A DNA stretch of 34,427 nucleotides. It comes from Rhizaria sp. SCN 62-66 (Eukaryota). Of this stretch, positions 1,221 through 34,427 are shown piece after piece. Each line of letters begins with the position of its first letter. The stretch's first letter is position 1. Position numbers and translations under genes: made by a program. The notes beneath the pieces are model-generated. The model did not search any database and was not told where the DNA came from. It was given only the letters and a program-made list of their open reading frames with translations. The DNA lies in the NCBI GenBank assembly GCA_001724265.1, contig MEDY01000447.1, forward strand, positions 1-34,427, in the 5' to 3' direction.

Positions 1221-3977
1221 TTAGTTACTGATGTTGCTTCCACCGTTCTCAGTGTCAAGCTGCACCCAGTTGAGGAACTCCTTGCAGCCAACGAGTCCGT
1301 CACGGTCCGCATCCGCCGAGCGCATGAGACAGCCGGCCTCCACAGCCGCCGGGTCCACTGCCGCACTCACACTCACAGTGACGTTGCTGCCGACTGCAGG
1401 GGTGACCATGAGCAGGAGCGGGTCGCTGCGGTCAAGCGCGGCCGTGAGGGCCTTGCCAATCGGCGCTGTGAGTCCCAGAGCGCGCAGCAGACGCGCCACG
1501 TCGTCCTTCCGCAGCCACCCGCAGCCAGCCGAGTCAAACGCCGCGAACGCTTCAAGCGCGCCGCCGCGCCAGCGTCCCAGCGCCGCGCGCGCGAGACGGT
1601 CCAGCGCGTGCGCCAATAGCAAGCGGGCGGGGGTGCGCACCGAGAGGACCGTTTCGAGCGGAGTGCCCACGGGCGAGGTGCGCGCGCGGAGACGGCACTG
1701 CAGCGCCTGTGCAAAATGCAGAGCGCGCGCGCGCAGAGGCGCGGCGGCGAGAGCACGGACGAGCGAGGCCGTCTCGTCGACAGAGAAGAAGAAACGGTTG
1801 TCCAGGAAGCGCAGCGCATGGGCCGCGGTTGCGCCCTGTTCGCTGCGAGACCACACACCGACGGCTGCGTCGGCCAGCGAGCTAGCAACGACCGCGGTCG
1901 TCGCGCTCGCCGCAGGGGCGACACTGGTGTTGAAGTTGTGGCTCCAGGAGTCGAGAACTGACCCGTCGTCAAGCAGACGCACTGCCAGCGACACGCCCAG
2001 CAACGCGCCGTCATTGCCGCTGTTGTTGCCGATGTTGTTATTAGCGACGGCAGAGGCGAGGGACGCGAGCGAGCCGCTGTGGATTGCGCGGCGCAGACCG
2101 GCCGCTTCGGACAGCGTGAGCGCGACTAGACGCGATGACACGCACACCGCGCTATTGTCGCTCTCGCTACCGCGAGCACTTGCGTTGGGCACGGCGACCG
2201 TGCGGTGAGACGCGGAGAGCGATGCGCGCACAGACGACAACACTGCGGCGACAGAGGCGCGGGTGACGCTGCTCGCACCGGGCGCCGCGCGCGCCTGCAG
2301 CAGAGCAGCCTCAGTGTGCAGACCGGCGGACCGCAGGCTGGCCACGACTTCGCTGAGCGGGGCGCTGTCACAGTCAGCGCTCTTGTTCGCAACGTTCGCC
2401 GTATTGGCGTTGTTCGAGTGAGCGCGGGCGAGCATGGCGAAGACACGCACAAGATCCTCGCTCTCCTCTGTGTCAACATCAACGCATGCGTTGTCCTTTT
2501 CTTCGCTCTTGCTCTCATTCTTACTCTTATCCACCCCCTTGGTAGTCGCGGTGACACGAGAGGGAGCAGTGTTGGCGTGGAGGAGATGCCACTCCGCGAT
2601 GACGTGCACGTTGCGCAAGCGCGGCATCGTCGCACGGTCAAACAGCTGGCGTGGGTCGAAGAAATGGCGACTGTATAGCACAGAAGGCGGCAGCGCAAGC
2701 GGGGCCGCGTCACTGCCAGGCAGCTCAGCCTCGCTTGCACGGTAGAACGGATGCAGGAAATCATCCCGCTCGCTGACGCCATCACTGTTATTGCTGCTGA
2801 CGACAACAGCGGCAGTGGGCTTGGCGTCGGCGGAGCCGTCCTTGGCTTCGTCAGCGCCTGCGTGAGCGACACTGGTGATGGGCGGAGGGCCCACGCTGGT
2901 GAGGGGCGGGGGTCCGCCGCCGCTACTATTGAGAGGCGGAGGGCCACTGGCAGCGAGGTTAAACGTAAACGTGGGCTGCTCGTCATCGTCATCGCTGTTG
3001 TCGGCGACAAATGCGCTGCCAGTCGAAGCCTTGATCGCAGGCGCCGCCGCAGCAGCCTTGTCGGTGACAGCATACTGAGACGCACAGTCCTCAGCGGACG
3101 CAAGAGAGACAATGGTGCCAGCCGCCGGCCCCTCCGGGCGGAACAGCGCAGCCAGCGGCCAGGCCTTGGTCTCAGCGTTGAGCGCGAAAGAGAACTGCAG
3201 CATACTGTGCTGCACGGCCTGCTCCTCGACTTCAACCTCTTGCTCATTGACCATCTCCTGCTCCAGGCGGTCCACCTGCATCTTTCCAGCGCCCGCAGCC
3301 TCTAGCGCGCGCACTGCACGCGCGAAACTGCGCGCCCACTGCCGCGAGACAAGCTCGCGCGCGTTGGCAACAACCATCTTGTGCGCCATTGCACGAACAC
3401 GCGCGTCGACGCTCTCTCCGATCTCATCATCGTTCGGCACTCTCAGCTCGGCGCCGAGACCGATCTTGCCAGCCAGATCGGTGTCCGCGGCGGCGGCCTC
3501 GCGGCGCAGCACGGCCGCCAGCGACAGCGGCTGCGGGACGGCAGTCTCAAGCCCGTGCACGATCGGCTCCTTGAAGAACTGCAGACGCGCGGGCGCGTGT
3601 GACAGCTGCGGTGGCCCGTCCGCAGGCAGCATTGAGCGGACAACGATGCGGCGGACTGACTCGCGTGCGGCGTACTTGCAGTGCTGTACGAATTGCACGC
3701 GCTCAGCGTTGGCGGCGTTGACGAGTGACCACGCCATGACGTCGTTCGGGGTCACGCCCTCAGCACTCGCCACAGCAGTCGTCGACACGCTGGTGCTACG
3801 CTCTTCGCTGCTGGAGGCGTTTGTGGTGGCGAGACGAATCAAACGTGCGAGCTCAGGCACGACGAGTACGACAGCGCGCTGACCGGTGGCGATGCCACGC
3901 ATGCGGTAGGCGCCCTGGGAGTAGTCACGCAGAGTGAGGTCCTTGCCCAGCGTGATCGCAGCGACGGCGTTCGGAGC
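1221..3977 (-). CDS. Gene A terminal exon (918 aa + TAA): helicase motif VI-like QGAYRMRG, EQEMVNEQEVEVEEQ segment, low-complexity linker, EF-hand pair
   Basis: Acceptor CAG 3980-3978, exon in frame with the 893-aa ORF (3977-3902 = 75 nt). Confidence 0.9.
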   Translation of the reverse strand, partial: APNAVAAITLGKDLTLRDYSQGAYRMRGIATGQRAVVLVVPELARLIRLATTNASSSEERSTSVSTTAVASAEGVTPNDVMAWSLVNAANAERVQFVQHCKYAARESVRRIVVRSMLPADGPPQLSHAPARLQFFKEPIVHGLETAVPQPLSLAAVLRREAAAADTDLAGKIGLGAELRVPNDDEIGESVDARVRAMAHKMVVANARELVSRQWARSFARAVRALEAAGAGKMQVDRLEQEMVNEQEVEVEEQAVQHSMLQFSFALNAETKAWPLAALFRPEGPAAGTIVSLASAEDCASQYAVTDKAAAAAPAIKASTGSAFVADNSDDDDEQPTFTFNLAASGPPPLNSSGGGPPPLTSVGPPPITSVAHAGADEAKDGSADAKPTAAVVVSSNNSDGVSERDDFLHPFYRASEAELPGSDAAPLALPPSVLYSRHFFDPRQLFDRATMPRLRNVHVIAEWHLLHANTAPSRVTATTKGVDKSKNESKSEEKDNACVDVDTEESEDLVRVFAMLARAHSNNANTANVANKSADCDSAPLSEVVASLRSAGLHTEAALLQARAAPGASSVTRASVAAVLSSVRASLSASHRTVAVPNASARGSESDNSAVCVSSRLVALTLSEAAGLRRAIHSGSLASLASAVANNNIGNNSGNDGALLGVSLAVRLLDDGSVLDSWSHNFNTSVAPAASATTAVVASSLADAAVGVWSRSEQGATAAHALRFLDNRFFFSVDETASLVRALAAAPLRARALHFAQALQCRLRARTSPVGTPLETVLSVRTPARLLLAHALDRLARAALGRWRGGALEAFAAFDSAGCGWLRKDDVARLLRALGLTAPIGKALTAALDRSDPLLLMVTPAVGSNVTVSVSAAVDPAAVEAGCLMRSADADRDGLVGCKEFLNWVQLDTENGGSNISN

Positions 3978-5619: not shown

Positions 5620-8600
5620 GCTGTTGTTGTTGTTGTTGTTGCTAGTGCGCTGAAGAGCAGAGGAAAGCGCGTCGACGAGCACGAGCGGGACCTGCCAGCG
5701 CGCGGGCGCAGGCTGGAGCTCGCGCTTAGCACCGACGGGGAAGTTGAGCTCGGACTTGAGAGGATGCAGCAGCACGTCAACTTCGTCCATGACCAGGCGA
5801 CTGCAGCGCAACTGCAGCAGCAGCGTCTGCAGCTGCTTCAGGGCGGCCGCAAGCGTGCGCAGCTGAAGCGCAGTGTACGGGAACCAGCGGCACAACCATT
5901 CGCACTCGGACAACTGCGAGACAGGCGAACCAAGCAGAGTCGAGGCTGTCTTAGCGGCCGCGGCGTCGAGCTGCGCTGTGTCATCAGCGGACATGCCCTG
6001 GTTGAGCATGTGCTGGCGTGCGGCCACAGTCGCGAGATCGCTCATCGCAGCCGTGACTTCGACAGCCTTGAGCAGGACGGACTTAAGTGTGACGTCAGTG
6101 CACACAACAACACCGCCGGCGCGGGAAGATTCGCGCAGTTGCTCCACGAGCTGTTGCAGCACAGGCGAGACGCTCGCGCGCGCGGGGCTGGGCAGCTTGG
6201 CCAGAATGAAATCGGGCGGTGTGGCATTGTTATTGCTGTTAGAGTCAGTGGAAGGCGGAGGGATGATCTTCTCAGCGCGGAGCCGCGTGACAACAAACCC
6301 AAACCGTTGGCCACGGAGCGAGGCGGCGTACTTCGTCATCCACTGCTCGGAGCGGCGCAGCAGCGCTGTGGCAGGCTGGTCTTCGTCGACTGCGCCGAGA
6401 CCCATGATGCCGCCCATGTCACGCTGGAACGAGAACGTGGAGACGGGCACGGAGAAGAGAGCGGTGAAGCGGGAGCGGAGCACAGCGGTGGACATGGGGA
6501 GAAGCGCGGTGGGGACAGCGTTGACAGTGCACGGCAGCAGCTTATCATCGTCGTCCTCCTCCTCTTCCTCCTCGTCGTCGTCATCGTCCTTATCAGAGCT
6601 CTTCTCGGAGCCAGAGTCAAGGTCTGAGAACGAGTCGGAGTCGGATTCCTTGGCGTCAGACCCGTCGTCGTCACTGTTACTGCGGTCACTCATCCGCTCA
6701 GTGCTAGCCTTCTCATCATTGTCGCCATCATCGATATTGTTGTTATCGTCATCATCGCACATCATGCAGTCCTCAGCCTTCTTCGCAGCAGCAACAGCAG
6801 CAGTCGAGTTCGACTTAGCCTCCGCAACAACATCGTTGTCATCATCAGCGTTGTTGTCGTGCTTGAGCGGCTTTGCCTTGATCGTCTTCGCGCGCGTCAT
6901 CACATTCTGCGACGTGAACACCAGCATCACCAGCGGGCCCACCACTGTCGTCTTGCCAGCACCCATGAGCATCTGATGCACCGAATTGCGCAGCGTATGC
7001 AGCCCCGTCTTGCTGTGCAGCTGCTTCCAGCCAGGCAGCACCGGCGCAGCCACGGGGCTCACGCCCGCGCGCGCCTGCACGTCGGCCTGGGTCGCGAGCA
7101 TCGCGCGCACGACACTGTTGCCATCGTACTGATCGCCCGTTGATGTCGGCAGCGTGCGCACTGCGCAGGCGAGCACCACACGCCAGCCGCGGGGCGCGCT
7201 CTCACAGGGCGCGAGCGCGGCCGCACGGTGTGACACTGCAGGCAGCAAACGCGGCGCACTCAGCGCGCTCATCACGCCGGTGCCCGCGCTGTTGCCGCCG
7301 CTGGAGCCTGTGTCGAGACCGACGACGGCGACGGAAGTGGCAGGCGCGGGGCGGTTCACTGCGGGCAGCGCCTTCGCCGGGGCCGCGATGAAAGACCGCA
7401 CGAGCTCAACCTGGCCACGGCGTAGGACGATGTCGAAGCAGTACTCAAACGCCAGGAAACGCGGGTCATACACCACCGTATCGCGGCGCGTCAGGCCTTC
7501 GTGTGCGCCGTTGGCGATCGCAGCGGCGCCCGCGGCCACGGCGGCGGCGTCGGCGCAGGCGGCGTTGGCGTAGAAGCGGCCCGTCGTGAGCAAAGTCGCC
7601 AGAGACTGCGTCTGCTGTGCCAGCGCGAGCAGCGCCGCGGGTGCCAGAAGCGGGCCGTCAGCGGGTGCGCCGGCGGGTGCACCGGCTGCTGCTGTGGCAA
7701 GAGTGCGGGCGCGGAGCACGAGAGCCGGCGGCGCGGGTTGCAGCGAGGCTGGGATGGAGTTGAACACAGCGCTGATGGCACCGTTGCGCGCGAGCGCCTG
7801 TGCGACTGAGCGCGCGGCCTGGAGTGCGCGGTACAGCAGCGCAGTGCGGTTCACCCGTAGCATGTACACGGCGAGCACGGACATCACCTGCGCCGCGCCC
7901 TCAGTGTCGTCGAACCGGCGCGCGAGGGCGGGCAGCAGCATCGCGTTGGGCCCTTCACCCGTGGTGGACATGAGACCTTGGATGAGGTCGTTCACGCGCA
8001 GTGTCGCGCCGCCGAGAGCAAGGCGGCGCAGCTGCTCTTCGCGCTGCTTCTTATCGTCGTACAGCACAAACCGCTGCGCGACAAGCCCGATCATCACGCC
8101 GGTCATATCGCGCACCAGCGACCACACCGCGGCCTCACGTGCGCGCTCACGGGCCGCCGCGGCGCCAGCGCGGACGGCGGCGACCGCGGCGAGGATGCCG
8201 GCGCGGCGGCGCTCGGTGGCCGCGCGTGCCTGGAGCTTAGAGCGCGCGTTGAGCAGAGGGCCGACGAGGTCGAAGCGGCGTGACGCCTCGTGAGTGCGGA
8301 TTTGGGACTCGACGTGCGCGAGACAGCGCAGTGTCTCTGTGAGGCCGCGCGTGCACTTACTCTCCTCAGCACACTGACTGACAGTCGCACTCTTATTCGC
8401 AACAGGAGGAGGAGCGACGTAGCCGGGGAGATCGCGGACATCACCGTCACCGCGGATACTAAGTCCGAGTGCGAGATACGCGTCAACCGCCGCGGGCGTG
8501 CACAGTGGACGCCCGTCGCCACAGTCATCCACGACGTTTTCAGCACTAGCGGCGCGCTCGCACAGACGCGCGGACACACGTGCCCACTCGCGGATCCTCA

Positions 8601-19500: not shown

Positions 19501-21466
19501 TCGTTGTTCGCCGCGCCGCCGCCGCGGACGACGATCTGCATGATCGCGTGTCCGCCGTGCGGCTTGCGGTAGCCGCCCGGGAACGCGTATACTTCACCGG
19601 GCTGCAGCGCGAGAATCTTCTGCGTGTGTTGATACGCCAGCGCGGCCAGCGCAGTCTCCTTGATGGTCGGCGCAGCGGCCGCAGCGCCCGCGGAGCCGCC
19701 CAACGCACGCTTGCGGTTAAAATCCGCGGCGGCCTGATCGCTGCCGGCGGCGGCCGAGTCTTCACCTTTCTGGCGGCCTAGCAAAGCGCGCGCACCGTCG
19801 TCGATGGCGACGTCGTCTTCGTCGGGCTCGGCGCCGGAGATGGCTGCGCGCGCGCGGCGGCGGCCGATGGCGGTGGAGACCATATCCCAGATGCTCTCGA
19901 GCGGGAGAGTGGCGATGTCGACGGGCGCGGCTGACTCTGCGCTGGACTTGAAGTCGTCTTCGTCGTCAGAGTCAGTCCAAGCGCCGTCAGCGTCATCGCT
20001 ATCCCGCGCAGCAGCAGAGGGAGCAGCGGCTTTGTCTTTATCTGTCATGGTCGTGGTCGTGGTCGATGGCTTGGTGCCATCCTCCGCGGCGTCGTCATCG
20101 CCGTCAGCGTTGGTGCTCGAGGCGGCAAGAACGCCGTTTTTGAAGCTAACACCAGACGGATCCTCAGCCGGCATCGCCGTCACGAGGTTAAACTCCTTCG
20201 CAGCTTCATGTGCCTGTCGCAGAGTTGCGCTCACACGCGCCACGGCCGCGCGCGTGCCCGCCGACACGGTCTGCAGCGGCGCGATGCGGTCTGGCAATTG
20301 CGCGAGATAATGCTCGAAGAAAACGAGCGAGTCAAGCACACTTCCGCCCTCAAGTTCGGTGTTTTTGACGAACGGGTCGCCGAATTGACCTACGAAACCA
20401 CGCGCTTGCCAGACCGGGAACGGGTGCGGGTGGACGCGCATCGACGCCAGCGCATACCGCGTGTCTGGCACGACTGACCGCATCGCAAGAGCGGCGAGCG
20501 CAGGGTCAGAGTCGACGGCCGGGTGGGTCTGCCAGTGTTTGGGACGCTTGAAGCGGGACTCGAGCGTGTGGTTCAGAGGCAGACGCGGGGTGGTACCGAC
20601 TGAGCTGCCACAGTAGACGGCCTCGCCCTTGGACAGTAAGATCGGCTCGGCGTAGAGCGCGCCGGTGCAGTTGGGAGCGTAGTGTTGCGCGAGGGAGAAC
20701 ACGTGCCCACGTGCCAACGCGGCCTCGTATGAAGCCTTGGTAAGCAGTGCGCCGTCGAGAGACTGCACTTCAGCAGTAGCACAGGCTTCGCAGACGAGTC
20801 CCATGAGCTCGAACGATGAGTCCGTGTCAAACTCGGACTTGTCGGAAGCGTTGTACACGGCGAGTGCCATTGCGAACACGGCCGGGTCGGACATGACCCA
20901 CATCGAGACGTCGGCGCGCGTTTCGTCGCAATTGCGGCAGGCGTTGCACCAAGGGGATGACGTGTCAGTGGAGCACGAGTAGTAGCTAGACTCGGAGCCC
21001 TTAACGCACTGGCTGCACGCGGCGTGGCCGTTACCCTTGGCGAAGCTCAGCATGGAGCTGTGTTCACGGCAGCCGGGAAACTCGCAGTACTTGCAGTTAG
21101 GGCAGATCAGGACGCCGATTTTGTGAAAGAGACTCTCACTCGCCTTAGGTTTCACTACAGGGACGTCCATCAGCCGTGAGAGGTCATCGTAGACGGCCGT
21201 GTCGGCTGCTGTCATGACGTTTGTCCGCGGTAGCTGCATCGGAGCAGCGGCCCCAGATTCGGCGTTGGTGTTGTGGTCGGTAATTGACTGCCCGGCCTAA
21301 GGAGCCGAGGCGTCACTCAAAAACGACATAACCCCTAAAAGTATAAAAATACACACAGTGGAAAATCAATGAGTCTTGTGTTTGTTCGATGGCAGCGCGT
21401 TACAAAGTCCACAGAGCTAGGATATGTCGGCGCTCTGCTCGCCTCGCTCAACAAACTGGGCGCCAT
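1221..21466 (-). CDS. Gene A (spliced; exons 21466-21404 tentative, 21296-19209, 19077-4105, 3977-1221; 6,626 aa by this model): giant DUF3638/DUF3645-family protein with Cys-rich N-terminus, putative Cys-protease (DUB-like) module, SF2-helicase-like ATPase and C-terminal EF-hands
   Basis: Three long minus-strand ORFs (727, 4995, 893 aa) join in phase 0 across two GT-AG introns, giving continuous motifs across the junctions (YPSDDHQ|VEMLYHVILP and DQVHTVGIDISQ|APNAVAAITLGKDLTLRDYSQGAYRMRG). Other motifs: QMLMGAGKTT, MDEVD, AVPYAGKDAPMPSSEFAHPDV, GFSGTP. Ends at TAA 1223-1221. The 5' end is uncertain (ATG 21466, 21329 or 21239). Confidence 0.88.
1278..1535 (-). other. EF-hand pair at gene A C-terminus
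   Basis: AFAAFDSAGCGWLRKDDVARLL (degenerate loop) and MRSADADRDGLVGCKEFLNW (canonical DxDxDGxVxxxE loop). Confidence 0.75.
2869..2948 (-). repeat. Three tandem GPPP(L/I)(N/T)S peptide repeats
   Basis: SGPPPLNSSGGGPPPLTSVGPPPITSV. Confidence 0.7.
3978..4104 (-). other. Spliceosomal intron, 127 nt, phase 0
   Basis: GTACGC donor, AT-rich body, 3' end TTTTTTCTAACGTTCTCAG with CTAAC branch-like site. Removal restores the reading frame and joins motif V-like to motif VI-like segments. Confidence 0.93.
4105..19077 (-). CDS. Gene A main exon (4,991 codons)
   Basis: Uninterrupted ~15 kb ORF bounded by acceptor TTTTCTAG|GTC (19078) and donor CAG|GTACGC (4104). Collinear motifs shared with gene B. 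Confidence 0.92.
5566..5640. repeat. (GTT/AAC)n microsatellite encoding poly-Asn in gene A
   Basis: Visible GTT trinucleotide run with a few GCT interruptions. Encodes SNNNNNNSNNNNNNNNNNNSNSGNNN. Confidence 0.95.
6541..6860 (-). repeat. Low-complexity Asp/Glu/Ser-rich tract in gene A ATPase
   Basis: DDDDNNNIDDGDNDE ... SDSDSFSDLDSGSEKSSDKDDDDDEEEEEEDDDDK, with TCG/TCC/TCA triplet runs on the plus strand. Confidence 0.8.
18955..19550 (-). other. Putative cysteine-protease catalytic module (His 19550-19548, Asn 19373-19371, Gln 18972-18970, Cys 18957-18955), split by an intron
   Basis: GGHAIMQIV ... FVICNSGNG ... PQRAGTCYY: His-Asn-Gln-Cys order as in CE-clan (Ulp1-like) proteases, though Q-x4-C is shorter than Ulp1's spacing. 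Function is inferred. Confidence 0.6.
19078..19208 (-). other. Spliceosomal intron, 131 nt, phase 0
   Basis: GTACCC donor, AT-rich body, CATTTTCTAG acceptor. The spliced product aligns with the uninterrupted equivalent region of gene B. Confidence 0.9.
19209..21296 (-). CDS. Gene A upstream exon (696 codons): Cys-rich region, acidic linker, first half of the protease module
   Basis: The 727-aa ORF stays open upstream to 21296. Coding-like composition ends at donor CAG|GTACCC (19208), after which the ORF reads AT-rich intron sequence. Confidence 0.85.
20610..21104 (-). other. Cys-rich, probable Zn-binding N-terminal region of gene A
   Basis: CPNCKYC, CREH, HAACSQC, CNACRNC, CEAC, RGH, YCG. 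Confidence 0.55.
21404..21466 (-). CDS. Tentative first exon of gene A (MAPSLLSEASRAPTYPSSVDF)
   Basis: AAAATGG start context and donor TTT|GTAACG at 21403, phase 0 with acceptor CCTTAG|GCC at 21297. A stronger-looking acceptor at 21335 would be skipped, so the model is uncertain. Confidence 0.4.
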
Positions 21467-22670
21467 TTTTCGACGCTCATTCCAAGGCACAAACGCGCAT
21501 TTCTGAGCATGAAAATAAGAAAACCATAGACAAAGAAGTGCGTTCTTGGCAAATAGCAAAAGAAACGCTGAGATTGAGCGATTCCAATGTGAAATGTGTC
21601 AGTTAAGGGATACCATTTTGCGGCGCCTCATCGTTAATATTTTTTTTGTGTGGTCAGAAGTGGTCGCTTGCTCACGGTCACTTCTCCTTTCGCCGCATTG
21701 TGACAGACGATTGTGGTGACACCAAGGGACTCATCTTGCGCGCACTCTACGGCTTCGTCATTGGTTGACTTTGGACCAGTATTGGTGGACCTAAATGTGT
21801 TGTAACACCGTTTGAGCTGCAGTGTATAGTTTTGAAAGCGAATAACTCTCAATAACATTTCTCAAACAATCGTTTCCAGAGGCGCGCATATCTGATTCTC
21901 GCTCCAAGATGCGTTTGTGGTGGAGTCACACATCTTCCAGTTCCCGCATGATTATGAAGTCATGACTGCCAAATATGCCATATTCGTGTATTACATGTTG
22001 TTTTTTTAACTTTGGTTTATTGCACTGGCAGCACATGTGTTACCGTCGACATTCTGCATAAAATTCCAGTCGACAGCTTTTGCCGGTCGCGATTTAAAGG
22101 TGGCGTTTCTCGTGTATACACACTTCGTTTTCCTGTGAACACAGACTCTCTTTTTCTATGAAAACNCCACCTTTATATGCCCGCCCCGAAATGGCCGCGG
22201 GTGGTGTTTGCCCCAGTGTGAGCCTGTGAGACTTGGTATTTTATGCTGAATGTCGGCGGTAACAACATGGCGCTAGTTCAGTGAAGAGAGGACTAAATAA
22301 TGTTCTTACTCTTCGTTTGCTTCGCGTGCGCGCCCTTTGGCTCGGTTCAGTTTTTGATCTTTTGGGGAGCTATTCCGTTCGTCAAAGTGTGAAATTGGCA
22401 TTAATTTAAACGCAAATTAGAAAATAACCTGTGTATAAACTGTTGCCGCTGCTGATCAATGCGTATTTGATGTATACTGTAGCACGAAGAATGAAGACAA
22501 GCCCAGCTCAGATATCCATGCTGCCCAAGCTTAGAGAAGTCGCGTCAGACTGACCGTAGATAAGTTGTTCACAACTTACACATTAACAGTGTGATGTGTA
22601 ATCGTAACTCACAACTTATCTCCCTCCTCTCTTCTTGTCTTCGGTTTGTAACCTATGGTAGGATTGAAAT
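21467..22670. promoter_or_regulatory. AT-rich divergent intergenic region, probable shared bidirectional promoter and 5' UTRs
   Basis: About 1.2 kb non-coding, AT-rich segment between two outward-facing start codons, with no credible ORF. Confidence 0.55.
22558..22621. repeat. Nested inverted-repeat element upstream of gene B
   Basis: AGATAAGTTGT (22558-22568) pairs with ACAACTTATCT (22611-22621); TTACACAT (22576-22583) pairs with ATGTGTAA (22594-22601); also palindrome TAAGTTGT-TC-ACAACTTA (22561-22578). Confidence 0.7.
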
Positions 22671-25600
22671 ATGTCCGACCCTTCAGCTTCTGCTGATGTC
22701 GACGCTGTTGGTGAGATACCACAGTCTAGCATGATCTTTTCCCCGGGAAGGTACGCCTCTTTCTCAACCTCTCACTGGTTTTTTTGTATGATCTGATGTG
22801 TATGTGCTTGTTGATGACTGATCTCCCGCTCACAACTGACACTCTTCACTTTCGATGCGAACGCAATCAGGGCCTACGATGGCGACCAGATCGGCGCACA
22901 TGTCTTGTCTGATGATGGCCCCGCAAACATCAACCCGTTGTTCCGCACCTGCGGCAAGTCTGTGATGCGTCAACTGCGCCGCACTGGCCGTTTTGCCGAC
23001 AACAACGATGAGTTCGTGCCCGCAGCAGAGGCACTGTCCGTAGTGCAAGAGCGTGCCACCGTGCTTCGCCGCCTGCTGGACGCTGTGTCAAGCACTGAGA
23101 CTGCAGACGACAGCAGCGGCTGCACTAGGACAGCGCTCACGGACGCTGAACTTAAGCTGTTCTCAAACATTGCATTCAAGTCCGTCACAGCACCAACAGT
23201 GACTTCTGCTGCAGTAGACGCGGCTACACCAACGAATACATGCAAGAGCACCGCCAGTCACGCCGCCACACCGGTCAAGACAGCCCATGCAATGACTGAG
23301 TCGGCGACAGCAGCCGCAGGCGCCGCTACTGGCACTGGCACTGGCACGCTTACCGAAGACACGCCTCTGCCGACAGCGGCTGTGAATCTTCCAAACATGT
23401 ACTGCGAATCATGGAACGCCAATTTCTTCGACTTTCGCGGTAACGCTCTCCCCAAGGGCGCTACCTTGGTTGGCACGGCAGAGTTTGAGCGCCAGCCTGA
23501 CCACTCCACTGCTTTATCACTGGAACCGGGCGCTTACGTGCACCTCGACCTCAGCATTGGCTCTATGCTCCCCGCCAAGGCCAGCCGTACCACTGTCATC
23601 GTGCTCGAAATCCTCTGCCCTGTTCTGCCACGCGACGCTGCTTCACTCGTGGTGTATAACCCCGGTTTTCACACCGCCGCGGGCCGCGCCCCCGATGGCG
23701 ACGCGCTGCTTTCTTCCGACGGTGGTGTTGGTGCGCTCGGTCGTTTCGGACTCGGGGCACTCATGCTCATGACGCTCCCTGGCGGCGTCGGCGGCGGCGG
23801 CGGCGGTGCCGGCGGCAACAACGCGCCTCCCGTTGTGGTGCCCGGCGAGTGGACGCGTGTGGTGATCGTACGCTGCAAGGACCTCATGGGTGAGCAAACG
23901 CTGTCGACATACATCAACGGCGCACTCGCAGCGCAGATCGTTGACCCACTCCTCGAGTCGGACCGCTTTGCCATTGCGCGCAATGAGATCGATATTTTCC
24001 GCTCTGCGCGCACAGGGCTTCAGCTGCCCTTTAAGGTTCGCGTGGCCGCTGTGTTCGCGTCCCCAACGGACCGTGCTCCGCGCGACCTGCTCAAGGTCCT
24101 CAACAAGACGAACTTCATGTTTTCTTCGCACCGTTTGAAGCGTGAGGCCGTTGAAGCGAAGCTTTTCGCAAGTCTTACACTCGCGCCGCTGTACAAGCGC
24201 CCGCCGCCGCTTTGGATGCACTCGGCATTCCTCTACACGCTCTCGGCGCCACTGCTTGCGTTCACTTCAGAGGTCGGCGCCGCCACATTGCCAGACTTCC
24301 TCCCCGTCTTCTCACTGGTGCTCCGCGGCATGCTGGCGTCAAGCTTGACCACGCCTGTGCTCGACGCGCTGACTGTAGACCACCGTGAGCGTGTCGCCGC
24401 CGTTGCGCACTCGTTCGCGCGCGCGCTCCCGCTGGCAAAACGTTTCCCCGTGGGTCAGAATGCGGGCCCCGCGGGTTTGCTGAACTATCTGAAGCTCGTT
24501 GTCGAAGCTGTGGGCGCCACGCGTGTAGGCGAGACAACCGTTGTGCCGCTTGCGCTCACGCAAAACCGTGACATGCATACTGCTGCGCAGCTCGCCTACA
24601 TTGTGCTTGTCGAGCGTACCACTGAGACCGCGTGTACCGTGGTCATTGTCAACACGTCACTCGACTCTGGCCTGCGCTTCCACCCTACCTCCGCGGCAGT
24701 CCCCGGCGCATTGCAGTATCATCTCTCGCTGCCCATCGAGGACGTGCCGCTGGACCGGGTGACTGACGGTGCACTGTGGGCTCCTCTGATCTCCATGATT
24801 GACCCTGTCGGCGGCTGCCCCTTGACGCCGGACTCTGACTTGTACGCACGAGTTCTCATGCTGCTGACACAACAGCCGATTGCCACCACGGTCGCGCGCG
24901 CTGCCGCGACTGCTGTGGAGAACCCCGATGGCACTGCACAGGAATTCGCTCCTTTGCCTCTTCTCGCTGGCTCTCCTGCCGCGTTATGCCGCGAAGCGAT
25001 GCGTTTCATGCTCCGTCGCCGCGGGCTCTCCCGTGCGCACGCTCAGCTCGTCGACTTCGGCTTCCAAGCCCGGTTATTAGAGCTCGCCCACAGCGACGTC
25101 GTCTGTTTCCCTCGCCTCTCTGATGTGGACGCGCGCGCATTGCTCGCCGCAGTCGCCACCGTTGCCGGCGAGGCCGCGCGCTGCTCCGCTGAGACCGGAC
25201 TGCTCGGCACCGCGACTTTGGCTTCAGTCTGCGCCTCGCTGAAAGACCTGAGTGCGGGCATTGATGAGCTCCGTACGTCGTACGACGACGACGCGCCGCC
25301 GATGCTGCACTTGGACGACGGGGGTGTGTCGCACGATGCCACGCAGCACTCTTTATTCCCTTTCATGGAACGTTTCGTGCGTTATGAGTCGGTCGACGGG
25401 CTGGCTGGCACCACGAGCAGGTCTGAAGACACTGTGCCGTACGACGTCATGCGCCTGCCAACGCGCGCACGCACGTTTGACGAGATCTCGTCTGCGATTC
25501 TGTACACGCATGACCAGGCGTTCCACGTGTACGACCCCGACACTGTTCGTAACCGTCACGCAGTGTTTGTGACGCTTATTGAACATTTGGTGACGCGTAT

Positions 25601-28600
25601 CCTGCCCATTCCCGTCGCTGCGCACGCGTCTGAGGAGGCGCGCACGCGCTGCCCCTGGCAGACTCCCATCACACACTCGCTGCAAGCCCGTCTCGTTTAC
25701 GTGCTCGGTGATCTGACGCTGTGGTTCACCGCATGTGCGTCGTTTTCCAAGAACTCGCGCGCACTTGACTACACGCGGCTCGTTGTTGTGGCCGCACTTA
25801 CCACCATGGTGGACTCGCTTATGCGCCGCCGCACAACCGATTTCCAGTCGCCCTTTTCGCTCGCACTGTTTGAGGGCCGCTTTGGCCCCGGTCCCGGTGC
25901 GTTTGCTGAGCAAACTGCAACGGCGATCGGCGCATATCCAGAGCTGCAAGTTGTGCGCTCGCAGGTGATGGCGTATTTTACTGAGATTAGCGTAATGCGC
26001 CAGGTCTTTCTGTTTAACGAGGTCTTCTTCTCATCTGCGGACATGGAGTTTATGAAGGATATCCACCTTCGTTCGAGCCTGCCGACGCAGCGTGAGAATT
26101 TGTCCCAGGGTCTGATGCATAGTGATCGCGATTGCTCTTCGCATGTCATGGACGCGTACCCTGAGTTGCGTCACTATCGCGACGTTTGTTTCTATCTCCG
26201 CTTCCTTCAGGCGAATGTCACTGTTCTCACGGAGGACAATGATTACGCACACGAAGCCATGACCAAGGAAATGCCCAAACCCGTTAAGATGTACTCCCAT
26301 GGCGACGGCATGTTGCGTGCTGATTTTCTGCGCCACCATATGAAGTTTCAAGAAGCCCCCATGCTTCGCTTTCCTCCTGGGGCTTCAGTCCCACTGCTTA
26401 CTGACACACCTTCGATCAACACCGAGGACGACGTGCTGCACGTACCGTCACTGCCCGATTTCGACGGGGCGCTCGGTCAAGCAGACTCTGAGCTCCTGCT
26501 CTCGTACCTCACAGTGCCTTATTTGCGTATTCCTTTGGTGCTGGGCTTTTTTGCCTCCGAGGAGCGCATCAACGCACTCAAATCCTCCAAGCTCTGTGGA
26601 GTGCTTGAGGCAGTGTTGTTTGAACCTGGCCGCTTTTTGCCGATCCCCGCTGTCAAGAGCGTGACCGTGCAGCGCACGCTTCCCAACGGCTCGCTTTCGC
26701 GCTACCATGACAGTGCGACTGACGATACGAAAGTCGGCGATGCGTTGGCGGCGACTGCGACCGCGGCGCAACAGGAAGCGGCAGCTCTCGCTGGGGAGAC
26801 GTTAGTGCCGGTCGCTGACCCGGCCACACTGGCTACGCGCTACGGCCTTTTGCTCAACGAGCTTATTCATGCGCCCGGCAACGTGCTGTCCTCGGCTGTG
26901 ACGATGGTGGAGCTGGCGCTTGCGCTGGATATCGGCACGGTGCAGTCGTCCTCAGTGTCAATCCTGCTTTTTGTGTTCCGCATGGCGGCACGCGTCGAGA
27001 ACTACGCTGCATTTGCACTACGCCAAGCTGAGGCTTCGTCTGCACGCTCCAACGGCACGGCTGACTCGGTTAATTCAGAATCTGCACACTCAGAGTGTGA
27101 TGACGCGGCGCCGATGTCGCCGGCGCACGTCCTGGCGCTTGCAGACGGTCTCAAGAAGCTCCGGCGCCTGCTCTGGGGCCGTGTTGCGTCCGCGCTGGCA
27201 AAGTGGGGCGCTGAGCTGTGGCAGATTATCCGCAGTGTGAAGGATAACGACTCTGGCGACGGTGATGATAATATGGATGAAGGGAATGACTCCGACGAAG
27301 ATGATCCTTCGAAGCCCATCTCCTTGTATCGTTCTTCCTCCTCGTATTCATATGAGTTGGAGTACTTTGAATTCAGGAGTTCGCTCTCGCGTGATCGTCT
27401 TACGTATGATCTGGCCTCCAAGGCTTCGGTTCAGATGACGGGCTCTGACAAGCGCGCGAGAGAGCTCGCTGAGGACCAAAAGGCACTTAAGAAGCTGAGT
27501 TCCGACGCCGCCACTCGCCTTCTCTGTGATTTGCACGCTCATACGATTGTGCTTTTCCGCAACGTCGATACGAACGTTCTGCTTTATAATCCTGCCTATG
27601 GCGCTTCTCTCGTGACTGGCATGCTGTTCCTCACGACGCGTCACTCGTTCGGCAAGGACACACTGCAGATCACCGAACACCTTGTGTTTGAAGCAATGCA
27701 CACAGTGCGTCGGTCGCTCGTCACTTGGCTACGCAAACTCACCGCCACCGCGCTGAGCCTCGTCATGGAGGCGACGATCCGCGTCGTCACGTGCGAGGGC
27801 GTGCTTGACATGCGGCTCGTCGCCCCCGCAGACTCTGCTGAAGACGTGGTCTCGCCCGTCGCACCGAGAGCCAGCGCTGCCCCTGCGCCCGCGGTCCTCA
27901 CCTCCGGCACACTGCTTACGGCGCCGTCGTTTTTGCGCCGGACTTCAAGTCTGAAGCACTCCGGTGCCGAGGTTGATCCGAGTCAAGTTGCATTCGAAGT
28001 CTTGACGCGCATGCTCGGCCCTGCTCCCGGTGAGACACCTCGCCGTGTGTGGCGCTATATCCCGGGCCCCGCGTGCACGGGCCTTTTCGTCTCGGTTGAC
28101 TTGGCGCCCGGTATGACGGCAGAAGAACCCGTTGACGGCGTAGGCGCAGGCAATGCGCTGTGGGCCGCTGCCAAGCAAGGCATGAAGATTGACACACAGT
28201 CGTGGCAGCTTACGCTCAAGGGCTCGCAGCTGCAGGTGTTACCTCAATCAGTCATGAACCGAACAGACGTAGCTATTACCTGCGGCACTCGCGCGATGCA
28301 AGCCGCGCTTGTTGACTCCGCTAAGAACCGCAAGGTTTTCCTGCTCGTCGGCCGCAGCTATGAGCTCAGCCACTGGTCACCGCCCAACGTCGGCGAGTTC
28401 TTCGAAGCTGAACGGCTTTACGACGCGAACGATTTACACCCGCACGAGCGTTGGGTTGCCGAGCTGCTCGAACCCGTGCGTCTGGCCTTCTTCGAGATGC
28501 CGCCGCCGCCGCTAATGATTTTTATGCCAACGGAGGCCCTCGCCAAGAACGCCAGTGTCGCCTATCTTGTCGGAATGCATCCCGAGCGTCACGGTGCCTG

Positions 28601-31600
28601 GAAGGAGTTTGTGGTGTACAAACACCGGCGCATGGTCGAGATCTACACTGTGATCTCACATGGGCGTCGCTTTTACCGTACGCTGTCGTACACCACGCAC
28701 ACACAATTCTCACTGCGTGCTTTGACCAGCGATTCGTCCGACCGCAACTTGCCGTGGGCGGACTGGGAACGCTACGCCGCAGGCTCACCTGACGCAGAGA
28801 TGCGCTCAGACTCGGTGATCATTGCGCGTAGGCCCGAAAACGTTGAAAACCTCTCGCGGACGCAGGAGATGTTCCTCCCGGCCCGTTTCCTCGAGGGTAT
28901 GCTACCCGAGGGCCTGGTGCGTCAGTACCTCTTCTGGCAGGACGACAACGACAACATTCGCGGTTACCCCGTCGAGGTTAGTAACCACACCGTCTTGTTT
29001 ATCGAGATGTTGCGCGTGTCTCGCTGCGACGCGTTCGAGGAAGCCGGTGTCAGTGTGCGCGTTACGCGCATGCCGCGTACGCTGATGGCACAGCGCGCTG
29101 GCTTCGCCGCGGGCGCTGGTGTTGCTCAGACGACAGCGTATTCAGCGTCCATCAGCAGTATTGCGCTTGAGGATGAAGAGTTGGAGCTTGTGAATCTCTT
29201 GCACGCACCTAAGTACTCGCAGCTTTTCCAGATTGCGTCTGTACTGAGCCGCATTGAAGGCCTTTCCAATGTCTTGGCTTGGAAGCGCGTCAGCGCAGCA
29301 CCTTCGCTCGCAGGTGCCCGTCACTTGCCGTTGCACACTGTTGCATCTGACGACACTGCTGCCTCCAAGCCTGTCTCACAGCTGAAACTCGCGAAGACAG
29401 CGGAGCAGCTGGCTGTGCAGGCCTCGAAGGAAGTCGTGGCTCAACAGCTGCTGGATCTCCCACTGATCGAGCTTCCCAACCTCAAGATGTCATTCCACAC
29501 GCGCGTTGTTGACGGCGAGTGCCGGCTGTACTCGCTCGACCACTCCGACCTGTATGTGTCCAACGCACGCAGTGAAGATCTGGCGCGGATTTCTGCTGGT
29601 ATCCCCCACAGCCTGATCATGTCCAACGACAATGGTGAGCTGTCGATGCTCGTGCCGTGTGTCAATGTTGCCAGGCCGACGATCGCGTCTGCGCCGCTTT
29701 CAACAGAGCTTGTGTTGGAGCGTAACAACTTGTACTGGCTGGAGATGATGGAGACCCGCTATTTCCTCTACCCGATTCACGTCTCGCTGTCGTTCGTCTT
29801 CACGCCGACGCTCGCATCCGCGCTGTACCTCATGCTGCTGCGCCTGTTGCACCGCGACTACGCCGAAGTTTTCCGCCTTGCAGACACTATCGGCTCCGAC
29901 ACTGAACTGTCAGGCGAAGAGCGTCAGATCTTCGAGGCGCTGAGTGAAGCTAACACAGACGTTCACGCCGACGCCTGTGCGTGCCGGCTCAAGATTGCGT
30001 TGGCACTTATGGACTCAACTGATGTCCAACTGCCTTGGTTGCATACCCTGACGTACTGTCTGTACGCACAACGCATTGCGGCGCTCTCGGCCTCGTGCCG
30101 TCTGTCGTTCCACGATGAGATTGCTGTGGCGCGCCTGGCGCTTCCTCAGGCGCTGTGCGGTAAGATCCGTCGCTTCTCGCGCCCCTCGCGCGCTTACCGC
30201 CTTCCAACCTGGGCGCCCATGTTGGTGATGGCGTACAACCGTCTGCAGTATCTCGAAGCTATGGTCTACGGCCGTTCTGCCTTCCGGACGCTCACCGTGC
30301 CGCCGCCGGACTCGGCGAGCTTCTACACTGCCGACATCGGCACCCTGGAAGAGATGCTGGTTGGAATGGGCCACAAAGAGCTGCTGTCAGCGGAGGCGCT
30401 TGCGCTGGTGCGCCCGCGTCAAGTGCGCGTGTTCTCACGTCCCGTGAAGCAAGTGTATGCGTCGCCGCGTAACACTATGGGTGTTGACGTCCTCGCGATC
30501 GCGTCGCGCTATCTTGCACACTCTGAGAAGCCGCATAACCTTGGTCCCGGTGCGCTGGGCTTCATGTACATCTACCAACTGCTGCAGTCTGACATCCGCG
30601 TCAAGATCGCCGGTCAAGACTGTGCGTCAACCTTCGGTCTGTTTGCGCTGTCGATGATGCCTCTGCGCAAGATGAGCAAGTTGCTTGTGATTCTGCGTCT
30701 CATGGCGCAGCGGCCCGATATCGCAGCCGTGCTGCCCCGCTGGTCGGTCTTCAAGAAGTCACTGCATTCATCCGACACTGGTGACGCCATCCACGACCGC
30801 AACAGCAAGGCTGTCCCACTCGAAGGCTTCAACGCCTTTGTCACTGATATAATCACCGCTATTGCGCAGCTCTACAAGATCAACCCGATCCTCACAGCGG
30901 CTCCCTATGGCACGTCACCTGCGACCATTCACCGAGAGCTCGCGCTCGCTGTTGTCCCCCGCCCTGCGCAGACTGGTCTTTGTGCCGCGGTTCCGATGCG
31001 CGCATGGATCATCCCGCAGCTCTCCGACTACGACTGTGACGTGCGCTACCTTTTTGCTGCTCCTTCCGGGCTGTCTCACGCCGATGCTGCAAACAGCTCG
31101 GATGCTGCGCTTGAGCGCCGTGTCAAGCTGCAGATGGCTGCGACGGGCGCGGGCGCGGGCACCGCGTCCAGTGCTTTGCGCCGTGCGCTGCGCTTATGGG
31201 AGGCGGCGAAGAAGAAGGGACAGCGTCACTTGGCCGATGAGAGTTGGACGTCGCTTGCATCTGAGGCCGCGCGCGGTCTGAGCTCGCTCGTCTCGACGAT
31301 CCTTGGCGATCTCAGTGTCTCTGATGAAGTCGCACTGCGTGCGCCAACTGAAACGAGTGGGCCCGTGGGCGGAGAGCTGCCGATTAACGTGCGCGCGCAC
31401 CCCGGTGTCCAGTCTGGTGTTGCGCTCGCCATGCAGACGCGTATGGAGAAGGACACTGTGCTTTTCAGCACATCTTACAACTCCTCTAAGGATACGTTCA
31501 TCAAGGGACTGACTGATGCTGACGTCCGCGCGATGATTGGCTCTGGCAGCAGCACGGAATCTACTGCTACAAAATGCACTCTTGACGGCCTTAAGGCGAA

Positions 31601-34427
31601 CCTCACATCGTTGATCCGCCGTCTGACTTCAGCAAAGGCCGACGATGAGCGCGTTGTCAAGTTTGCTTTTTACGTTATCAAGCACTTGTCCCGCCAGCAG
31701 GTCAGTCTCGAAAAGTCCGGCGATGTGTTCGCAGAGCGTCTGTTTGGGCGCGACGCCGGCATCCTGCAGGCTGTGTCCTCACTGCAGAGTCACGAAGCGC
31801 TGGCGATTTCGCGTCACATGAGCCACTGGCTCGCAGTTATCTCCGGTCATGAGCCCGAGCTGAAGCTTGAGTACGTCATCGGTGCACTGCTTTCCTCGCG
31901 TGCGGTGTTTGACTTGCGCAAAATCAACCCGTTCCTCCCTGATGATGTTATTAACGTCATGATGGCTTTCACGGAGGCTGCGCTTCTGCGCGCCAATCGC
32001 ATTGGCCACATCAACCGCACCCTCGGCGAGGCACGCGACTTGCTGAAGCTTCTCGATTCTGTATCCAAGGTTGCTGGGAACACAACTGCTCCTGTTGCGC
32101 CTGGATCGTCGACCTCTCACTCCGCGCTTATTGCAGGCGTGATCCAGAAGAGCAAGGCTCTCGGCACGCAGCTCACTGCGGCGCGTTTCTACTGCGACAC
32201 GACCACTGCTGAGGCCGTGGCCGCAGTTGAGGGCGCAGATGCGGTTGCGGAGGTTTGCACAGCGGACAAGTGCGGCTCGTGGCTTTTCGCGGCGCAGGTA
32301 CCTGAGGAACATCTTAAGTACACGGAGTCTGTCAATGTCGCCGCCGCTGAAGATGCTGCGCTTGCACGCGAGGCCGCGGTTGCGAAGTGGGAGGCTGACC
32401 CAGCCAACGCGGGCAAGGACAACCTCACCAAGGCGCGCTGCTGCGTACTTGAGGCCCGCGTGCTGCGCCGACTGTTCAAGCACGGTATGCGCGGTGACAG
32501 CATTCCTGTGCACCGTGGTCCGCTTGAAAAGCTTGCTGATGAAGGCATGTACGGCGTCTCGCGCCCTGCCAAGGCCGGTGTGATGTTGCCTGTCTCCGGC
32601 AGTACGGCGCCGGCTGGCACTGCGCTAGTGCGATACGACCCACGCTTCCTTGTGTTCTAGTTCACGTGGAACATCATGTTGCGCAAGAGTCAGGTTGCGA
32701 TGGTGCGTGACTTTGCGGAGAACATCCGCTCTGGCAAGTCGATCGTCAAGCAGATGATCATGGGTGCGGGTAAGACCACTGTCGTCGCACCGCTGCTCAC
32801 GCTCATGTTCGGCGACGGCAAGTCCCTTGTCATGGAGGTCGTGCCGCCCGCGCTGCTTGAGTTCTCGCGCTCGATCATGCGCTCGACGTTCTCGACCGTC
32901 ATGTACAAGCGCGTGTCGACGTTCCACTTTGACCGCGCATCGATTCCGCACCCGTCGATGCTCACCAAGCTGCGCGCCGCCGTCGCCGCCCGCGGCGTCG
33001 TCATCTCGACCCCCACCTCGGTCAAGTCCGTCATGCTTAAACTGCTCGAGACGCAGCAGCAGCTCAAAGACCTCACTCTCCCGCGCACGCGCGAGCTAGA
33101 GCACGAGCGCGACGTGCTTGTGGCGTTGCTCCGTGAGTTCCAGAAGGGCGTGCTGCTCATGGACGAGGTCGATATGATTCTTCACCCGCTCAAGTCCGAG
33201 CTCAACTTCCCCATCGGCGCTAAGCACGAGCTTGACTTCGACCCCCTGCGCTGGCGTCTCGCTATGCACGTGCTGGACGCGGTGTATTATCACGCCACAC
33301 CCGTCGTGCCGGCCGACTTCCGCGACTCCAAGGCCGCCGTGGCGCTGCTGGAGCAGATCTCGGCCGCCGTGCGCGTCGGTCTGTCGGAGCGCCACATGCA
33401 GTCGTCGCCGCACGTCGTGCTGCTCAACGCAGACTTCTACTACGCGACGCTGCTGCCGCTCATGTGTGACTGGGTGATGCTGTGGGTTGAGGCACAGCAC
33501 CTCACGGGCATCACCTCCGCGCAACTGCGTGAGTACTTGCTTACTTCCGGTGTGCATAACGCCGAGCTCACGGCTGCGGTTGAGACGGGAGTGACGCCGC
33601 ACTTTCGCAAGATGATGAACCTCGCGCGCGACTGGCTGCGGTCGTATCTCCCGCACGTGCTGCAGAAGATCGACCGCGTCGGCTTCGGTCTGCTGTCCAA
33701 GGAGGACTACGAGCGCGCCGTCCGGAACGACCCCAACATCCCCGAGACGCGCGCCAAGCTCGCCATTCCGTTCCTCGGCAAGGACGTGCCCTCGGAGACG
33801 TCCGAGTTCGCGCACCCCGACGTCATCATCGGTTTGACCTACATGGCGTACCGCTACGAAGGTCTCCGCTACACCGATTTCTGCGAGGTGATTGACAGTC
33901 TGCACTCGTCGCTCGGCAAGGAGCTCGGCCCGTACATCAAGCGTCCCACCGTGGCGCGCTACGCGCGCTGGGTGCGCGAGGCCGGCGGTGTTATCCGCGG
34001 TGAGGCTTCCGCCCCCGCGCCGTCCGCCGTCCAGCAGGGCCTCGCCGCACTGCAGGAGAGCAAAGAACAGGGCGAGGACGAGGAAGATGAGAATCTGGTT
34101 GTTGACAAACGCGTTGAGGTGATGCCGCTTCGACTGCTGAAGCGGTCCAACGTCGACCACATGCAAGCTCTTTTCAACGTCCTGGTTTATGAGCCTCTGG
34201 TGATCCAGTGGTACTTGAATGATTTCGTCTTCCCGGCCCACCTGCGCCACCAGAAGGTCAAGCTCTCTGCCTCCGGTGTCGAGATCGGTGGCGACATGCT
34301 CTTCTCGCGCCGCGTCGGTTTCTCCGGTACGCCGTCCGACCTGCTCCCGCTGGAGCTCGGCCAGTGCGACTACGAGAAGGGCACCGACGGTATGATGGTG
34401 CACGTGCTCACCTCGCCCGACATGGTT
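22671..34427 (+). CDS. Gene B (exons 22671-22750 and 22871 to beyond window; one in-frame TAG at 32658-32660): giant DUF3638/DUF3645-family paralogue of gene A with LamG/ConA-like N-terminal domain and degenerate protease module; 3'-partial
   Basis: Exon 1 MSDPSASADVDAVGEIPQSSMIFSPG joins in phase 2 to the 3251-aa ORF frame. The same frame continues past the TAG for 589 codons to the window end with QMIMGAGKTT, MDEVD, AIPFLGKDVPSETSEFAHPDV and GFSGTP. 3,289 aa if TAG terminates, at least 3,879 aa if it is read through. Confidence 0.85.
22751..22870 (+). other. Spliceosomal intron, 120 nt, phase 2
   Basis: AAG|GTACGC donor (same hexamer as the gene A intron at 4104), T-rich body, CTGAC branch-like site, AATCAG|G acceptor. 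Restores frame (AG+G = Arg). Confidence 0.85.
23400..24060 (+). other. LamG/concanavalin-A-like beta-sandwich domain (putative) in gene B
   Basis: Alternating beta-strand pattern ALSLEPGAYVHL ... TVIVLEI ... PGEWTRVVIV ... LSTYINGALA resembles the W-x-H/R-V ... LYxNG signature. Contains a Gly-rich insert at ~23781-23823. Confidence 0.55.
32661..34427 (+). CDS. In-frame continuation of gene B: DUF3638 ATPase core and DUF3645 motif (absent from the ORF track, presumably because it runs off the window)
   Basis: Manual translation FTWNIMLRKSQVAMVRDFAENIRSGKSIVKQMIMGAGKTTVVAPLL; Walker A 32760-32780; Walker B MDEVD 33159-33173; HPLKSELNFP identical to gene A. Confidence 0.9.

Follow-up and report, generated by a model that had tools for sequence, protein, structure and literature searches.

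Nuclear codes in which UAG alone has become a sense codon are described with Leu, Gln or Ser as the inserted residue, namely Leu or Gln in phyllopharyngean ciliates, Gln in Protocruzia and Ser in Scotinosphaera, and Glu at UAG is reported only alongside UAA as Glu or UAA as Lys, as far as the accessible text of PMC11687900 goes; the available portion of PMC12440015 mentions only Blastocrithidia for UAG as Glu. Excerpts of PMC5304391 give UAG as Leu in the rhizarian exLh and as Gln in Iotanema spirale. Here we consider a stretch of 34,427 nucleotides from Rhizaria sp. SCN 62-66 (the window, which is the entire contig G000:C447), where a gene for a giant DUF3638/DUF3645 protein, gene B, contains an in-frame TAG. 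The combined results make it likely that UAG encodes Glu in the nuclear code of this organism, probably a cercozoan, with UAA and UGA as stops and UAG very rare; the TAG of gene B is most likely the trace of a real, sparse genetic-code variant and not an error or a gene-specific trick. A code with UAG as Glu and UAA and UGA as stops has apparently not been described before, in that neither it nor any cercozoan nuclear code other than that of exLh was found in a literature search, the scope of which excluded most subscription journals and supplements.

The first-pass annotation of the window had offered sequencing error, a recent nonsense allele, programmed readthrough, reassignment of UAG to Glu or Gln and RNA editing as explanations, and had proposed a read-level check, searches for a CUA-anticodon transfer RNA (tRNA) and an altered eRF1, and a count of terminal stops. 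Among these explanations it is reassignment, with Glu as the residue, that is supported by the tRNA, by eRF1, by TTLL9 and by the gene ends. The features on which the argument turns are the following, in window coordinates.

22671, plus strand: predicted start ATG of the probable first exon of gene B.
22818-34427, plus strand: main exon of gene B, a giant DUF3638/DUF3645 P-loop protein of more than 3870 codons that runs off the contig end.
32637-33296, plus strand: Pfam DUF3638 match spanning the TAG (E-value 1.4e-29; residues 80-299 of 32400-33299 translated with X).
32658-32660, plus strand: in-frame TAG, putative Glu codon, the sole stop in the frame; GAG in paralogues, and the same in contigs from three studies.
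32763-32780, plus strand: GAGKTT, which we take to be a Walker A-like motif, intact.
33153-33173, plus strand: LLMDEVD, which we take to be a Walker B-like motif, intact.
33744-33839, plus strand: Pfam DUF3645 match (E-value 2.3e-15) with an HPD motif at 33813-33821.
7444-7446, minus strand: GAG (Glu) of the paralogous gene A, in the column homologous to the TAG.

The gene B frame is open for 3280 codons upstream of the TAG and for 589 downstream, to the contig end, with the Walker A, Walker B and HPD motifs preserved, as first described. An ungapped alignment of the motif confirmed that the TAG stands opposite GAG 7446-7444 of gene A, and GAG occupies this column in all six of the paralogues that align there. 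The TAG had been placed at a domain boundary, which is not the case: the DUF3638 match, in the frame translated with X, begins seven codons upstream of it and covers model positions 9-221. The boundary argument for programmed readthrough yielding short and long isoforms is weakened because the TAG lies inside this match, and such readthrough is an unnecessary assumption. As a gene-specific device it was rejected, given the GAG of the paralogues and a genome in which TAG is not a normal terminator.

No decay is visible in gene B downstream of the TAG. Relative to the closest paralogue, C506 (open over 4102 codons; 69% identity over 4053 columns, 95% after the TAG site), the ratio of nonsynonymous to synonymous substitution (dN/dS) comes to 0.036-0.044 in the 420 codons that follow the TAG and to 0.20 in the last 170, values that say nothing on the age of the TAG. 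At 69% identity C506 is a paralogue, and its identification as the other allele of gene B was rejected. The synonymous distance between the two, 1.0-1.6 upstream, drops to 0.26-0.39 right after the TAG (32661-34427), which suggests that the ATPase part of gene B may have undergone gene conversion with C506, with a border near the TAG site.

Sequencing error, ranked as the simplest option in the first-pass annotation, is refuted by the contigs of runs X1 (depth 39.6), X2 (7.5) and X4 (7.4), from three studies, all of which span the site and read TAG at 32658, with 0 other letters. X1 is possibly the source of the assembly, contigs lose rare variants and the three runs share one identical strain; the agreement therefore means that the TAG is fixed in one strain and is not evidence of conservation. 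A further explanation is removal or alteration of the TAG in the messenger RNA (mRNA), either as a splice acceptor after a pyrimidine run or by U-to-G editing. The bases preceding the TAG are acceptor-like, and TAG hits in the paralogue C76 and in two dyneins were rejected as true splice acceptors or intron sequence. In addition, RNA run X6 contains pieces upstream and downstream of the gene B TAG and none across it. Against this, the 258 bases upstream of the TAG include a conserved motif, have a G+C (GC) content of 64%, versus 29-52% in five introns, and align codon by codon with C506 at a dN/dS of 0.07-0.10, which indicates purifying selection; C506 has the identical pyrimidine run, there preceding GAG. 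Because the upstream bases are GC-rich and under purifying selection, an intron ending at the TAG is unlikely, and the original view that none is needed is upheld. Neither splicing nor editing accounts for the tRNA or the gene-end counts described below, and we find this explanation scarcely credible.

A tRNA gene with a CUA anticodon is present at G000:C84:76008-76080, as an intact 73-nucleotide cloverleaf followed by a T run. The CUA anticodon-arm pattern has 19 matches in the genome, one of which folds as a tRNA, and a DNA search likewise returned one copy. The Rfam model score of the CUA tRNA (58.0 bits) is close to those of tRNA-Glu(CUC) (58.3) and tRNA-Glu(UUC) (56.5) from the same genome. 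Compared with 37 other tRNA sequences (52 loci; an incomplete set, as 63 of 506 candidates were scored), it is most similar to tRNA-Glu(CUC), with a score of 47 of 73, followed by tRNA-Glu(UUC) with 38 and tRNA-His with 37, the tRNA-Gln sequences reaching 31 and 25. The CUA tRNA is ~64% identical to the closest of its Glu relatives and is not a fresh point mutant. The label 'Pyl' assigned by ARAGORN reflects the anticodon only; pyrrolysine decoding was rejected, as the body matches the tRNA-Glu of the genome, although pyrrolysyl-tRNA synthetase itself was not searched for. Three pattern matches on C404 are variable arms of tRNA-Leu(CAG) and were likewise rejected as CUA tRNAs. None of the 25 matches to a UUA pattern, judged by eye, is tRNA-like; intron-bearing tRNAs would escape the pattern. 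A CUA anticodon cannot read UAA, according to the available text of PMC11687900, so UAA stays a stop.

The sole eRF1 gene found among three candidates scored has a mid-exon in-frame TAG, at G000:C63:103465, in the position of human E107 and ends in TAA; the other eRF1-like candidate gene presumably resembles Pelota. Of 120 homologues, 109 have E in column 107, ten have D and one has V. An identical Joint Genome Institute metagenome contig, possibly of the same source, repeats the TAG; a metagenome scan for eRF1 relatives returned 32 loci, with one identical DNA contig and no other above 69%. The protein is altered as well: T32S, G57S, L124M and K130Q (human numbering) occur in none of the 120 homologues, and T58K occurs in one, the closest relative (P0005). 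P0005 keeps T32 and G57. E55, the NIKS motif, S70 and the YxCxxxF motif (Y125/C127/F131) are unchanged. T32 forms a bond with the G of UAG and is replaced by Gly in Iotanema, according to excerpts of PMC5304391, and a T58 change is noted for Paramecium eRF1 in the accessible part of PMC5681627. The substitutions are consistent with an eRF1 that has lost most or all UAG recognition.

A third conserved gene, TTLL9, lies on the same contig as the CUA tRNA and has an in-frame TAG, at C84:3890, where 119 of 120 homologues have E; PDB structures of TTLL proteins hardly extend to this site. The conserved columns at TAG are thus Glu in 3/3 cases (gene B, eRF1 and TTLL9), a small number for decoding, and two further TAG sites lie in acidic tracts. 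These residues, together with the tRNA, point to Glu as the inserted amino acid. A private nonsense allele in gene B is unlikely, since TAGs like that of gene B also occur in eRF1 and TTLL9 and none of the sampled genes convincingly ends in TAG.

The stop codons were counted in a main sample of 729 kilobases (kb) in 85 pieces, a non-random set made up of 400 kb of contiguous stretches together with the window, paralogues and search loci, and in a held-out sample of 130 kb. Under the strict filter, predicted gene ends in the main sample comprise 20 TAA, 21 TGA and one TAG, and the last lies inside a gene, with nine further codons and then a splice donor behind it; the held-out sample has three TAA, four TGA and no TAG. 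In total, 48 of 49 predicted ends are TAA or TGA (23 and 25), the lone TAG being internal. With TAG making up 21% of stop triplets in AT-rich non-coding DNA, the probability of finding none at 41 gene ends is 6e-5. The loosest filter gives 49 TAA, 48 TGA and five TAG (held-out: nine, six and none), which makes five TAG among 117 ends; by-eye inspection, which covered the TAG rows only and not those of TAA or TGA, found that the coding frame carries on past two of the five TAGs, that two more stand before a donor and that one is ambiguous. TAA and TGA thus end the genes, with no convincing terminal TAG in the sampled ~2.5% of the genome, and a context-dependent code in which UAG is both stop and sense was rejected, although UAG may on rare occasions end a gene.

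Inside genes, where one filter was applied to all triplets, the main sample has 11 TAG, no TAA and one TGA in 111,288 codons, beside 4817 GAG and 655 GAA. The strictest filter leaves six TAG and neither TAA nor TGA in 93,762 codons, and the held-out sample has two TAG and neither of the others in 18,528. Overall, sense UAG accounts for 13 of 129,816 coding-like codons, ~1 per 10,000 and 0.2% of Glu codons. At that rate (13 in 0.86 Mb) the 35 Mb assembly would contain several hundred sense TAGs. The gene-end counts are the stronger test. Internal tests with short flanks were rejected as unspecific (20 codons: TAG six, TAA one, TGA one; 12 codons: TAG three, TAA two, TGA one). The contigs that carry gene B, eRF1 and the tRNA agree in codon usage, with correlations of 0.98-0.99, so these contigs are from one organism.

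The same counts bear on the possibility that the code is standard, with the gene B TAG a fixed nonsense allele in a redundant paralogue, the other TAGs mutation load and the tRNA an incidental weak suppressor. Such a scheme fits with the nine other family copies, with the clonal identity of the strain in the three studies and with an internal TAG excess that, alone, is compatible with random mutation. However, a null eRF1 is lethal, and no second copy was found in an assembly that is perhaps incomplete; gene ends lack TAG; the tRNA is undamaged and already far removed in sequence from the tRNA-Glu that gave rise to it, which implies that it has been long retained; and gene B is without a frameshift or other stop. 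We consider a standard code very improbable.

To the absence of run X6 pieces across the gene B TAG are added several points that weigh against reassignment to Glu. The internal TAG excess alone is not significant, as random point mutation would give 71% TAG (P ~0.1), and was rejected as a proof of reassignment. The gene ends are ab initio calls over ~2.5% of the genome, and one of the TAGs passing the loosest filter, C63:65345, could be a true end, with a TGA four codons on. The Val in column 107 of eRF1 belongs to the closest relative, P0005, which is 84% identical. According to the accessible text of PMC5681627, simulation assigns the bond with the third-position G to the backbone of T32, not to its side chain; T32S may be without effect if so. 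Of the three conserved columns that can be assessed, that of gene B was chosen for being Glu, leaving two that are independent; the chance that both are Glu is 0.035-0.08, as Glu codons are the origin of 19-28% of the one-step changes that can produce TAG. At a fourth site, C63:74752, two distant homologues (30-37% identity) have Arg and Leu. Finally, four TAG sites are in Gln tracts (C5:11539, C77:48328, L087:2721 and C27:69797), so a Glu/Gln mixture at UAG is possible.

The protein at G000:C63:74752 (L147:4302-4991) is conserved, unannotated and has an internal TAG; it had no Pfam match and no PDB match, and a public protein library stores it as two pieces cut at the TAG (P0242 and P0243).

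A CUA anticodon can attract glutaminyl-tRNA synthetase, as in bacterial amber suppressors, and UAG might by this means be read as Gln or as a mixture of Glu and Gln. There are several precedents for UAG-only reassignment to Gln in the available text of PMC11687900, and the Gln-tract sites would be explained. However, the body of the CUA tRNA resembles that of tRNA-Glu and shows its lowest similarity to tRNA-Gln, each of the three conserved columns is Glu, and the homologue tallies for TTLL9 and eRF1 are without Gln. Moreover, TAG arises most often from CAG (20-40%), and replacement of Gln by Glu would be tolerable in low-complexity tracts. Decoding as Gln, alone or mixed, therefore appears improbable.

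If UAG is a Glu codon, a ribosome reaching the UAG of gene B would receive Glu from the CUA tRNA, charged with Glu, and eRF1, with substitutions (T32S, G57S and T58K) at positions opposite the third stop base, would compete poorly there; the complete ATPase-bearing protein would be produced. The change from GAG to TAG in gene B would have been silent drift. Full-length translation of gene B is thus predicted, with an efficiency of decoding at UAG that may be incomplete. The rarity of UAG may reflect codon bias and a single tRNA, or residual termination by eRF1. We think it probably reflects the preference for G/C-rich codons, together with one CUA tRNA versus at least eight copies of tRNA-Glu(CUC).

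In a leaky state, with the same tRNA and residue as under full reassignment and a difference in efficiency, the CUA tRNA would insert Glu and eRF1 would still terminate at UAG part of the time; UAG would be eliminated at gene ends and held at a low frequency within genes, and the UAG in the eRF1 mRNA would act as negative feedback. This is a possibility that we take seriously without favouring it. UAG is more than 100-fold rarer here than in Blastocrithidia, where excerpts of PMC12153298 give 1.38-1.66% of codons, and far rarer than in phyllopharyngean ciliates, with UAG in 78-91% of genes in the accessible part of PMC11687900. The CUA tRNA is single, the chance that eRF1 carries a TAG is ~4% by a per-codon estimate, and the E55, NIKS, S70 and Y125/C127/F131 elements of eRF1 are unchanged; autoregulation of plant eRF1 by readthrough, as given in the available text of PMC5397192, provides a loose precedent. 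On the other side, the 4% is weak and post hoc, and GC-rich codon bias alone makes A/T-rich codons rare (ATA 30 and AGA 64 of 111,288). Avoidance of G after sense TAG (G at two of 17 sites) was rejected, as it was not repeated in the held-out sample, where both sites have G, and the metagenome scan yielded no relative in which conservation of the eRF1 TAG could be assessed.

More tentatively, and with the odds against it, we suggest that in this abundant wastewater organism UAG may be 'captured but almost empty' in a long-lived state, in which competition between eRF1 and an old CUA tRNA holds UAG at ~1 in 10,000 codons and the UAG in the eRF1 mRNA is selected feedback that caps the release factor and stabilises the reassignment. 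The internal stop of bacterial prfB acts as negative feedback, and the eRF1 UAG would, if this is true, be the eukaryotic counterpart of bacterial RF2 autoregulation.

Assignment of the organism to the Cercozoa derives from a tree of Rpt5 (118 rows: the query and 117 of 120 matches, the self match and two partial-coverage matches being dropped), a single-gene, quick-search, midpoint-rooted analysis in which the query probably falls with cercozoans, inside a 57-row clade with an SH-like approximate likelihood ratio test value of 97. The named members of this clade are Amorphochlora, Paulinella micropora and Mataza sp., which we take to be Cercozoa. A search of the genome with a polyubiquitin-junction pattern gave 0 matches. 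The best-matching sequencing runs are bioreactor and wastewater metagenomes.

Besides gene B, the genome contains nine further copies of the DUF3638/DUF3645 family (ten loci), with open frames of 2000-6200 codons; the family is thus expanded, its members match the known giant proteins and nothing about them is unusual but the codon. With respect to function, a literature search gave passing mentions only. One member, on G000:C77 (L042), has two in-frame TAGs (46471 and 48328) in a frame of at least 3332 codons without TAA or TGA; that at 48328 is inside a Gln tract and both are outside the regions alignable to paralogues. Gene A is arranged head to head with gene B, with a single N at 22166 in the intergenic stretch between them. 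Three long minus-strand frames (1221-21329) are exons of this one gene of ~6,600 codons, interrupted by introns near 19209-19078 and 4104-3979 (GC 0.29 for the latter) and an EF-hand-like tail that is under the Pfam cut-off. Gene A does end in TAA, as originally stated, at 1223-1221; the TAA that closes the long frame, at 4086-4084, is intronic. Its two remaining features are as follows.

1221-1223, minus strand: TAA, the true stop of gene A, the last exon of which begins after the intron 4104-3979.
21297-21299, minus strand: possible second in-frame TAG, codon 11 after the ATG at 21329, the putative start of gene A; alternatively a splice acceptor.

Compared with the described UAG-only codes, the proposed code shares UAG as a sense codon, UAA and UGA as stops and a tRNA with a CUA anticodon, and differs in its residue, Glu. 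In Iotanema T32 of eRF1 is also changed, to Gly, whereas here it is Ser, and UAG makes up ~8% of Gln codons, as far as the description of that organism is available, in contrast to 0.2% of Glu codons here. The exLh organism is, like ours, a rhizarian, and the present code, if true, would mean that Rhizaria have undergone a second code change, of another kind.

Closest in residue are codes with UAG as Glu by way of new cognate tRNAs. Peritrichs and Blastocrithidia employ a new tRNA-Glu, but UAA is also Glu there, with a dual meaning for UAA and with UGA as Trp in Blastocrithidia, according to the accessible parts of PMC11687900 and PMC12153298. In Oligohymenophorea sp. PL0344, whose genome is 30.6% GC and has 10 CUA tRNA genes, CUA tRNAs derived from tRNA-Glu read UAG as Glu, UAA is Lys and only UGA terminates, in excerpts of PMC10553269; in the present organism roughly one gene in two ends in UAA, the search gave a single CUA tRNA and the GC content of coding DNA is ~60-65%. 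A code with both UAA and UAG as Glu, or one of the PL0344 type, was rejected for this organism on the basis of 0 internal TAA in 129,816 codons, 23 TAA gene ends and no tRNA-like match among the 25 to the UUA pattern.

Few codes give UAA and UAG different meanings, and UAG as Glu with UAA as a stop would fill a missing cell and is a likely intermediate toward those of peritrichs, Blastocrithidia and PL0344. Code changes this sparse go unnoticed, as illustrated by the gene that is split at its TAG in a public protein library. Codon-capture and unassigned-codon models predict a state, seldom observed, in which a codon has gone from gene ends and almost gone from within genes; UAG in this GC-rich genome is in that state, and capture versus an ambiguous intermediate can be tested in this one bioreactor or wastewater organism.

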